A DNA stretch of 64,000 nt from a virus (taxonomy: Duplodnaviria; Heunggongvirae; Uroviricota; Caudoviricetes): the IMG/VR virus record IMGVR_UViG_2877982868_000014; one strand, 5' to 3'. A program made the position numbers and the translations under genes. The stretch's first letter is position 1. Every line of letters starts with the position of its first letter. The notes beneath the pieces were generated by a model that saw nothing but the letters and a program-made list of their open reading frames with translations, was not told where the DNA came from and did no database searches. Positions 40,897 to 44,333 of this stretch are shown one piece after another.

Positions 40897-43130
40897 ATTC
40901 ACTACGTCCGGAATTATTAGAACTCACGCCGCAGGCCCTGACGGCGTTAAGCAATGCCGGTTTTGTTAAGCGCAGCCTTAAGGAACTGGAAAATGGCAAC
41001 GTCCCGGAAATCAGCCATGAGAACGGCGCTTTAATCGCCACCTTCAGTGACGGTGTCCGTACCCAGCTGGCGAACGGCCAGGCACTGAAAGAGGCTCAGT
41101 GCACCTGCGGGGCTAGCGGCATGTGCCGTCATCGCGTGATGCTGGTGTTAAGTTATCAGCGACTTTGTGCCACCACCCGGCCCACGGAAAAAGAAGAAGA
41201 GTGGCAGCCTGCAATCTGGCTGGAAGAACTGGCTACCCTGCCCGATGCCACCCGCAAACGTGCACAGGTGCTGGTCGCTAAAGGCATCACCATTGAGTTG
41301 TTCTGTGCGCCTGGCGAAATTCCCTCAGCCCGCTTACCGATGAGTGATGTGCGTTTTTATTCCCGCAGCAGCATTCGCTTCGCCCGCTGTGATTGTATTG
41401 AAGGCACACTTTGCGAACATGTCGTACTGGCTGTGCAGGCCTTCGTCGAGGCCAAAACTCAGCAAGCGGAATTTACTCATTTAATCTGGCAGATGCGCAG
41501 CGAACACGTCACATCATCTGACGACCCGTTTGCCAGCGAAGAAGGCAACGCGTGTCGTCAATATGTTCAGCAATTAAGCCAGGCATTATGGCTTGGCGGC
41601 ATCAGCCAGCCGCTTATTCACTACGAGGCCGCTTTCAGCCGCGCGCAGCAAGCGGCGGAACGCTGCAACTGGCGCTGGGTGAGTGAATCGCTACGGCAAC
41701 TGCGCGCCAGCGTTGATGCCTTCCACGCCCGCGCCAGCCACTATCATGCAGGAGAATGCTTACGTCAGCTTGCGGCATTAAACAGTCGATTAAATTGCGC
41801 ACAAGAGATGGCCCGGCGCGACAGTGTTGGTGAAGTTCCTCCTGTGCCGTGGCGCACGGTCGTTGGCTCTGGCATTGCCGGAGAAGCAAAGCTTGATCAT
41901 CTGCGGCTGGTGTCTTTAGGTATGCGTTGCTGGCAGGATATTGAGCATTATGGTTTACGCATCTGGTTTACCGATCCCGACACCGGCAGTATTTTGCACC
42001 TTTCGCGCAGTTGGCCGCGAAGTGAACAGGAAAACTCACCGGCAGCTACGCGTCGGCTGTTTAGTTTTCAGGCTGGCGCACTGGCGGGTGGGCAAATTGT
42101 TTCACAAGCAGCAAAACGCAGTGCCGATGGCGAGCTGCTGTTAGCTACCCGCAACCGCTTAAGCAGCGTTGTGCCGCTGTCGCCTGATGCCTGGCGAATG
42201 TTGAGCGCGCCGTTACGCCAGCCGGGCATTGTGGCTTTGCGGGAATATTTACGCCAGCGTCCCCCCTCCTGCATACGGCCTCTTAATCAGGTCGATAACT
42301 TATTTATTCTGCCGGTCGCTGAGTGTATTTCGCTCGGTTGGGATAGCAGCCGCCAGACGCTGGATGCGCAGGTAATCAGCGGCGAAGGTGAAGATAATCT
42401 GCTGACGTTATCACTGCCAGCCTCAGCCAGCGCGCCTTATGCCGTTGAACGCATGGCGGCGCTTTTGCAACAAACAGACGACCCCGTGTGTCTGGTTTCT
42501 GGCTTTGTCAGTTTTGTTGATGGGCAATTGACACTGGAACCACAGGTAATGATGACAAAGACTCGTGCCTGGGCGCTGGACGCAGAAACTGCGCCTGTGG
42601 TGGCATCACTACCTTCTGCCAGCGTTCTGCCTGTGCCGTCTACTGCTCATCAGTTGCTGATGCGCTGCCAGGCATTACTTATTCAACTGCTCCATAACGG
42701 CTGGCGCTATCAGGAACAGAGTGCTATTGGTCAGGCAGAGTTGCTGGCGAATGACCTCACCGCGGTGGGTTTTTATCGGCTGGCACATGTATTGGGACAA
42801 TTTCGTAATACAGAAAGCGAGGCACGGGTAGAAGCAATGAATAACGGTGTTTTGCTGTGCGAACAATTATTCCCCCTGCTTCAGCAACAAGGATTGAACC
42901 GCCCCGGGTTTCCTGGAGAGTGTTTTATCTGTGAACTCAGGCTGCCAGATCATCGTTTCCGATGGAAGCATAATAAGCTTTTTCTGCTTCTGCCGGAGGA
43001 GCATGGCCCAGCCTTCCCAGCAATCGTCGATTGTTATACCAGTCCACCCACGTTAGTGTGGCCAGTTCCACTTCTGCACGGTTTTTCCAGCTCTTACGGT
43101 GTATTACCTCCGCTTTGTAAAGACCATTGA
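40893..43130 (+). CDS. yehQ: SWIM zinc-finger protein YehQ with native stop destroyed by IS629 (read-through into the IS from 42894)
   Basis: ATGA overlap with yehP; reconstructed pre-insertion sequence ends ...CAA GGA TGA; current ORF continues 79 codons into the IS inverted repeat. Confidence 0.75.
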   Translation: MNSLRPELLELTPQALTALSNAGFVKRSLKELENGNVPEISHENGALIATFSDGVRTQLANGQALKEAQCTCGASGMCRHRVMLVLSYQRLCATTRPTEKEEEWQPAIWLEELATLPDATRKRAQVLVAKGITIELFCAPGEIPSARLPMSDVRFYSRSSIRFARCDCIEGTLCEHVVLAVQAFVEAKTQQAEFTHLIWQMRSEHVTSSDDPFASEEGNACRQYVQQLSQALWLGGISQPLIHYEAAFSRAQQAAERCNWRWVSESLRQLRASVDAFHARASHYHAGECLRQLAALNSRLNCAQEMARRDSVGEVPPVPWRTVVGSGIAGEAKLDHLRLVSLGMRCWQDIEHYGLRIWFTDPDTGSILHLSRSWPRSEQENSPAATRRLFSFQAGALAGGQIVSQAAKRSADGELLLATRNRLSSVVPLSPDAWRMLSAPLRQPGIVALREYLRQRPPSCIRPLNQVDNLFILPVAECISLGWDSSRQTLDAQVISGEGEDNLLTLSLPASASAPYAVERMAALLQQTDDPVCLVSGFVSFVDGQLTLEPQVMMTKTRAWALDAETAPVVASLPSASVLPVPSTAHQLLMRCQALLIQLLHNGWRYQEQSAIGQAELLANDLTAVGFYRLAHVLGQFRNTESEARVEAMNNGVLLCEQLFPLLQQQGLNRPGFPGECFICELRLPDHRFRWKHNKLFLLLPEEHGPAFPAIVDCYTSPPTLVWPVPLLHGFSSSYGVLPPLCKDH

Positions 43131-43827
43131 TGCTCTCAGCCATCGCGTTGTCATACGAGTCGCCTGTACTCCCTGTTGATGCCAGTAATCCGGCTTCTTT
43201 TAGTCGCTCCGTATAGGCTAGTGACACATACTGAGAGCCTTTATCGCTGTGATGGATGGTGCCAGACGGACGACGGGCCCACAACGCCTGCTCCAGCGCA
43301 TCCAGCACGAATGTCGTTTCCATAGACGATGAGACCCGCCACCCCACGATGTATCCGGCAAACACATCAATGATAAACGCCACATAGACGAAGCCCTGCC
43401 ATGTGCTGACGTAAGTAAAATCAGCCACCCACAGCTGGTCAGGTCGTTCTGCCACGAACTGACGGTTTACGCGGTCGCCTGCGGCAACGGCTTTCCGGCT
43501 GATGGTCGTACGGACCTTTTTACCCCGGAGAACACCGGCAAGTCCCATAACCGCCATGAGACGTGCCACTGTACATCTGGCCACCCTGATTCCTTCCCGT
43601 AACAACTGACGCCAGACTTTACGCACACCGTACACCTGATGATTTTCATCGTATACGCGCTGTATCTCTCTCTTCAGCCAGTCGTCGTGCTGCGCACGGG
43701 CACTGCGTTTATCCGGATGATGTCGCTGTTGCTGACAATGGTAATACGTTGACGGGGCAATATGCAGTTCGCTGCATACCGGTCCGACCCCGTACTGCTC
43801 ACGCAGCTTATCCAGCAGTGGCATCAT
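42937..43827 (-). CDS. IS3-family transposase OrfB (DDE integrase domain)
   Basis: 296 aa; -1 frame relative to orfA, overlapping at GGAAAAAATG. Confidence 0.9.
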
Positions 43828-44150
43828 TTTTTCCAGAGGCGGTCGAACTCCGCCTTCGCAAAATAAGCGGAAGCCTGGCGAAGGATATCGTTACTGCGGC
43901 GCAGTTCACGATTTTCACGTTCCAGCTCTTTCAGACGCTGACGTTCAGCGCTGGTGAGCCCACCATCACCGCCCCCGGTATCCCGCTCATGCTGGCGAAC
44001 CCAGACACGCAGAGTCTCCGGCGTACAGCCAATCTTTGGGGCAATGGAACAAATTGCCGCCCACTGTGAGTCATATTCATCCTGACTTTCCAGAACCATA
44101 CGAATCGCCCGCTGACGGACTTCGGGGGAAAAACGAGTATTTTTAGTCAT
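43824..44150 (-). CDS. IS3-family transposase OrfA (HTH)
   Basis: 108 aa [19 protein letters not shown]...; ends ...DRLWKK at the slippery A-run. Confidence 0.9.
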
Positions 44151-44333
44151 CCTGTTTACCTCTTTCTCAGGGAGTTTAGTCTCCAGGATTTCCGGGGCGG
44201 TTCAGATGAAATAGTGCTTTTTACTAAGAGTTCTACTCCAGTTCCGGACTGCTCACGCCACGGTATTAGGCATATCCTATATAGCCCCTGGTGAGAGTCA
44301 CCAGTTCCTTGATTAAATAAAATGGAGTTTTAC

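Follow-up and report, generated by a model that had tools for sequence, protein, structure and literature searches.

An already catalogued IS629 insertion lies within the stop codon of yehQ in Escherichia coli O157:H7

We analysed a 64,000-nt stretch of DNA recorded as a virus of the Caudoviricetes (IMG/VR record IMGVR_UViG_2877982868_000014; hereafter the window), on which the 3′ end of the E. coli gene yehQ is interrupted by a complete copy of the insertion sequence (IS) IS629. The initial annotation of this DNA, made from the letters alone, placed the element in the yehQ stop codon with an extension of the reading frame, and described a 1310-bp IS with inverted repeats, orfA and orfB, an A6 slippery site and a GAT target duplication. 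All of these components were found in the sequence, and analysis of the junctions placed the T of the yehQ TGA inside the GAT duplication. The features of the gene and of the element are listed here by window position.

40893 to 42893, plus strand: coding sequence of native yehQ (667 codons; SWIM zinc finger in the N-terminal part); nucleotide-identical to the intact allele of strain PV15-279.
42892 to 42894: left copy of the GAT target duplication; the native TGA of yehQ begins with its T.
42894 to 43130, plus strand: read-through extension, 78 codons and a TGA stop (43128 to 43130), composed of IS repeat and antisense of the orfB 3′ end.
42895 to 44204, minus strand: complete IS629 (assigned to the IS1203 subtype; IS3 family), 1310 bp, delimited by inverted repeats and target duplication.
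42895 to 42919: inverted repeat at the orfB end (IRR), 25 nt, starting TGAACCGCCCCGG.
42937 to 43827, minus strand: orfB, 296 amino acids, DDE integrase-core part of the transposase, in the −1 frame relative to orfA (Pfam rve, 96.8 bits; HTH_21, 66 bits).
43753 to 43869, minus strand: ALIL pseudoknot, a frameshift stimulator (matches Rfam RF01497 over the full length, 1-117, with 121.5 bits, gathering score 50, and E 1.5e-32).
43824 to 44150, minus strand: orfA, 108 amino acids, helix-turn-helix part of the transposase (Pfam HTH_Tnp_1, 47.3 bits).
43827 to 43832, minus strand: A6 slippery run, directly before the orfA TGA stop.
44180 to 44204: inverted repeat at the orfA end (IRL), matching IRR at 22 of 25 positions.
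44205 to 44207: right GAT copy; the T at 44207 and the GA at 44208-44209 form the displaced native stop TGA.

The triplet GAT at which the element inserted spans the last sense codon of yehQ (GGA) and its stop (TGA). On the left side only the T of the stop remains in front of the IS terminus TGAACC, and the frame reads TTG AAC CGC onward. The present open reading frame (ORF; 40893 to 43130) encodes 745 amino acids, that is, 78 sense codons more than the native gene, and ends at a TGA within the IS. The initial annotation had yehQ reading 79 codons into the inverted repeat; the extension exists, but that figure counts the stop, and the frame runs beyond the repeat through a further 194 nt that are antisense to the 3′ end of orfB. 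Its description of the product as potentially altered rather than simply truncated holds as a statement about the ORF, in which all native residues are kept, and is limited to that level. The added tail contains 12 prolines (15%) and 4 cysteines. It lacks a hydrophobic segment, the highest Kyte-Doolittle value over 19 residues being 0.97, and carries no sign of design. The SWIM domain lies at residues 56-88 (Pfam PF04434, 31.6 bits against a cutoff of 19.6).

Deletion in silico of the IS and of one GAT copy gave ...CAA CAA GGA TGA AAT AGT, encoding a YehQ of 667 amino acids that ends in QQQG and the stop, so the restoration of CAA GGA TGA foreseen in the initial annotation was confirmed. A 134-nt reconstruction of this empty site was then used as a probe against 5426 complete E. 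coli genomes, a match over at least 80% of its length being counted. The empty site, CAAGGATGAAATAG, was found in 5293 of the 5426 genomes, among them O157:H7 PV15-279 and Z1769 at 100% identity.

Comparison with an uninterrupted allele had also been proposed as a check, a reference yehQ extending past this point being the outcome that would make the insertion a truncation instead of an extension. The O157:H7 allele of PV15-279 (WP_001087225.1, annotated as 667 amino acids by the Prokaryotic Genome Annotation Pipeline, PGAP) stops at exactly this TGA, and all 667 of its codons are nucleotide-identical to those of the window. Some alleles from Escherichia cryptic clades are 5-6 codons longer through a mutated TGA, and the position of the stop drifts from −4 to +6 codons among Escherichia clades, but the intact alleles of O157:H7 and of other E. 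coli end at the TGA in question and that of K-12 ends earlier. Truncation by IS629 was rejected on the comparison with the intact O157:H7 allele, and the probability that the true gene continues past this point is very close to nil. The K-12-type YehQ of 614 amino acids is a nonsense allele with its stop at codon 615 of a gene of ~666 codons, which PGAP calls a pseudogene; full-length alleles encode 666-667 amino acids, and the K-12 form, itself truncated, is a poor reference for the native protein. The gene has decayed independently in K-12-type strains, in 2013C-4974 (by a frameshift) and in Shigella flexneri.

The element runs from TGAACCGCCCCGG to CCGGGGCGGTTCA, with the termini TGAAC...GTTCA, and the 28-mer at IRR occurs once in the window and not at all in 100 shuffles. 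The interval 42892-44207 given earlier comprises the IS together with both GAT copies. Other boundaries, or a 4-bp duplication, were rejected because all of the compared copies start TGAACCGCCCC and end GGGGCGGTTCA at unrelated sites; they are also excluded by the published table of IS629 sites, in which the insertion is listed as IS.17 with the same flanks (PMC3271280). The size of 1310 bp, the imperfect terminal repeats and the 5′-TG...CA-3′ ends agree with those of the IS3 family (~1.2-1.55 kb), as does the target duplication (3-4 bp in the family), GAT being present on both sides of the element and in one copy in the 5293 empty-site genomes.

The coding part of the element likewise has the organization of the IS3 family, with two ORFs in 0/−1 frames joined at an A-rich slippery site, a helix-turn-helix domain in OrfA and a DDE (rve) domain in OrfB; the orfB region scored 316 bits against the NCBIfam model NF033516 transpos_IS3 (cutoff 160). 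The overlap of orfA and orfB, GGAAAAAATGATG (CTC TGG AAA AAA TGA TG), contains AAAAAATGATG, and the region of the ALIL pseudoknot spans the slippery run. ALIL has been described as the −1 frameshift stimulator of IS3411 and of at least 27 further IS elements (PMC5009743). A −1 shift on the A6 run would be predicted from the sequence to yield an OrfAB of 404 amino acids, in agreement with the joined coding sequence of 1214 nt that PGAP annotates as a ‘programmed frameshift’ at the same locus in EDL933 and OK1.

A 1910-nt stretch covering both junctions was found in 44 of the complete genomes at 99.8-100% identity, and a 400-nt probe of the left junction identified the same 44. All of the carriers either bear the label O157:H7 or are strains without a label whose size is O157-like, and they include Sakai, several EDL933 assemblies, OK1, TT12A/B, FRIK804 and PA20. 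IS629, a multicopy element, was matched at 13-25 places in each O157 genome, and a junction of this kind might in principle arise when a repeated IS is collapsed during assembly. However, 44 genomes that were closed independently share both junctions and the perfect 3-bp duplication, and the site was confirmed by polymerase chain reaction (PCR) by Rump et al. (PMC3271280); we consider an assembly artefact to have hardly any likelihood.

We also examined the identity of the IS copy, as the initial annotation had recommended. Of its 1310 nt, 0-3 are different in IS.17, IS.18 and IS.19 of Sakai, which are annotated as IS629/IS1203, and it therefore reaches the level that we used for naming, at least 95% identity to copies so named (in Sakai, ‘IS629 transposase OrfB / IS1203 family’). 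Two IS629 subtypes are known in O157:H7, one closest to IS1203 and the other to the IS629 of O26:H11 (Rump et al., PMC3271280). Since the window copy is 0-3 nt from IS.17-IS.19 and 60-66 nt (4.6-5%) from the Sakai copies IS.13 and IS.10, which represent the second O157 subtype, it belongs to the major O157 subtype; we infer from the PGAP label ‘IS1203’ that this is the IS1203 subtype. In 11.2 kb of compared sequence there are only three differences between the window and Sakai (43002, 43219 and 44021) and a single one between the window and EDL933 (43219). All of them are inside the IS, and the flanks are identical to those of both strains. In Sakai, IS.17 is itself identical to IS.18, which lies 20 kb from it; together with the restriction of the Sakai differences to the IS, this suggests that IS copies have undergone gene conversion or that the older assembly contains errors.

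An independent 1310-bp IS629-like element was observed near yehQ in a non-O157 lineage, in 2013C-4974 and also in OkiPb01713, ~590 bp downstream of the yehQ stop and 6 bp past the stop codon of the next gene, yehR. The 2013C-4974 element (positions 3295-4604 of the locus stretch) differs from the window copy at 41 nt, has the same orientation and is flanked by a GTT duplication.

The insertion is already catalogued and annotated, and is not new; the sole detail that has gone unremarked is the position of the break inside a stop codon. Rump, Fischer and Gonzalez-Escalona (BMC Microbiol 2011, 11:133; PMC3271280) list it in their Supplementary Table 2 as ‘IS.17, backbone’, with CAACAAGGAT upstream, GATGAAATAG downstream and the same GAT repeat, at 2890776-2892085 in Sakai and 2961007-2962316 in EDL933. 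They report it absent in EC4115 and TW14359, and of the 27 strains that they tested by PCR only the stocks of Sakai and EDL933 were positive; most other IS629 sites of the same table also show 3-bp repeats (PMC3271280). In the Sakai record, yehQ (ECs_2931) is a coding sequence of 2238 nt (745 amino acids) that overlaps the IS repeat_region, and ECs_2932 and ECs_2933 are the IS629 ORFs. PGAP calls yehQ a pseudogene, ‘incomplete; missing C-terminus’, in EDL933 and OK1. Our literature search returned no paper linking IS629 with yehQ and none naming ECs2931 or yehLMPQ, and a search on yehQ alone returned nothing relevant to O157; papers retrieved for Z3290 and Z3291 dealt with other topics.

The context of the insertion bears on whether the extended frame is likely to matter. 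The native operon has the order yehL-yehM-yehP-yehQ, encoding a MoxR-type ATPase, a DUF5682 protein, a VWA protein and a SWIM zinc-finger protein respectively, and is followed by yehR; synteny holds against the K-12 and O157 annotations. In the window the neighbouring features are as follows.

1 to 39310, minus strand: Mu-like transposable prophage inserted in yehM, with mom, MuB-like, MuA-like and repressor genes; the tip of its c end, ...GGTTACA, lies at 39310.
1 to 738: mom homologue of the prophage.
34804 to 35736: MuB-like gene.
35808 to 37898: MuA-like transposase gene.
38332 to 38943, plus strand: prophage repressor gene.
39311 to 39767, plus strand: what is left of yehM at its 3′ end, starting near codon 608 of 759.
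39760 to 40896, plus strand: yehP, VWA-domain protein, intact, with a 4-nt overlap with the yehQ start.
44334 to 44795, plus strand: yehR, encoding a lipoprotein; the insertion leaves the 124-bp spacer upstream of it unaltered.

Homology to yehM starts only at about 39309-39311, and everything further left is Mu-like prophage. None of the 5426 complete genomes had this junction of Mu and yehM, and the phage end itself was found at many unrelated host sites, as expected of a transposable phage; the other Mu end and its 5-bp duplication are outside the window. With the prophage in place, 39 kb or more lie between the start of the operon and yehP and yehQ, which are on an 8.7-kb islet of backbone between the Mu-like prophage and a Sp15-type prophage that begins near 48046. 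In O157:H7 the operon has a further lesion. An internal stop at codon 510 of yehM (equivalent to window position 39015, here replaced by the prophage) is found in Sakai, EDL933, OK1 and PV15-279, and because PV15-279 is free of the IS, the operon was damaged before IS.17 arrived. The independent decay of yehLMPQ in O157:H7 (yehM), K-12 (yehQ), other Shiga toxin-producing E. coli and Shigella suggests that the operon is dispensable in these lineages.

On the far side of the islet, homology to K-12 stops at ~48044, a point at which btsS is followed by mlrA in K-12-type strains. The feature ‘prophage Sp15, lambda-like’ of the Sakai record starts at the position corresponding to ~48046, Sakai is identical to the window up to 50504, and the OK1 prophage is ~0.7% divergent from the window in the region ~48046-64000. 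As for yehP, it is mentioned 74 times in a study of +1 ribosomal frameshift prediction with FSscan (PMC2790909), apparently as a candidate.

We found no indication that the insertion acts on yehR. A scan of 42600-44400 gave no promoter-like sites, the IS ends included, and lends no support to an outward IS promoter driving yehR; terminator-like sites in the same interval numbered three against 1.6 expected, which does not support a specific terminator. An effect on yehR is not expected since the spacer is intact and the IS ends have no promoter-like site, unless yehR relied on read-through from yehQ.

Searches for a function of the operon were likewise negative. None of YehL, YehM, YehP and YehQ matched a PADLOC protein model of known anti-phage defence systems at E ≤ 0.01; YehQ belonged to no NCBIfam family and had no match at E ≤ 1 in a PDB sequence search. 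Fragments 95-96% identical to E. coli YehQ are encoded on two short contigs assigned to Bacillus coahuilensis m4-4 (898 bp) and Brevibacterium sp. UMB10442 (299 bp), which are almost certainly E. coli contamination of those assemblies.

Taken together, we favour the explanation that this is an ordinary, lineage-marking IS629 insertion, gained once in a sub-lineage of O157:H7 as a neutral hit in an already inactive operon, and give this a probability of roughly 0.93. Transposase would be made by −1 ribosomal frameshifting on the A6 run, aided by the ALIL pseudoknot. The element would have been pasted into the GAT across GGA and TGA with duplication of the triplet, leaving only the T of the stop in the left copy, and the frame continues for 78 codons to a chance TGA within the IS. 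The insertion probably had one origin, in a sub-lineage that includes Sakai and EDL933, and would have been inherited since. It most likely persists through neutrality, which we infer because the operon was already inactive through the yehM lesion; in the window the prophage splits yehM as well. Little or no extended YehQ is presumably made, and a functional consequence of the insertion is unlikely.

Nothing that we observed contradicts this explanation. Neither yehP nor the 667 native codons of yehQ are damaged, however, and some extended protein could be made if transcription started at an internal promoter or read out of the prophage repressor gene, whose direction is toward yehM′-yehP-yehQ. 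These points, together with the continuity of the ORF and the tolerance of variation at the extreme C-terminus that is implied by the drift of the stop codon, are what would recommend the view that a YehQ of 745 amino acids is produced with altered or new activity, amounting to a functional remodelling of the C-terminus. We consider this very improbable, given the yehM nonsense codon upstream in all O157:H7 genomes examined and the prophage of at least 39 kb here, the antisense origin and the composition of the tail, and the lack of PADLOC and PDB matches for YehQ or of literature on ECs2931 or on a yehQ-IS629 link. Slightly less probable still is a further possibility, that tail-bearing YehQ is expressed from an internal promoter or by repressor read-out and behaves differently because of the tail, or that convergent yehQ transcription antisense to orfB damps expression of the transposase and so stabilises this IS copy.

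The insertion adds another lesion to yehLMPQ, an operon of unknown function, and is of low significance. It is a tidy textbook case of an IS that removes only a stop codon, and the presence or absence of IS.17 is a useful typing marker that separates Sakai/EDL933-like O157:H7 from other clades.

Compared with known systems, the site is indistinguishable from IS.17 of Sakai and EDL933 (ECs_2931-ECs_2933 in Sakai), having the same flanks, GAT repeat, orientation and length of 1310 bp, and the window strain differs from the IS.17 strains in additionally carrying the Mu-like prophage in yehM. The element shares with ALIL-type members of the IS3 family, such as IS3411, the ORFs in 0/−1 frames, the A-rich run before the orfA stop, the full-length RF01497 match, the rve DDE domain, the TG...CA termini and the 3-bp duplication, with no notable difference. 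The disruptions of ydjE, ycgR and rhmT in Sakai, and of gne in O-rough strains, involve the same element and the same mechanism, and each of these genes is annotated as a pseudogene. In those four cases, however, IS629 lies inside the coding sequence and truncates it, whereas the insertion in yehQ removes only the stop, keeps all of the native residues and adds 78.

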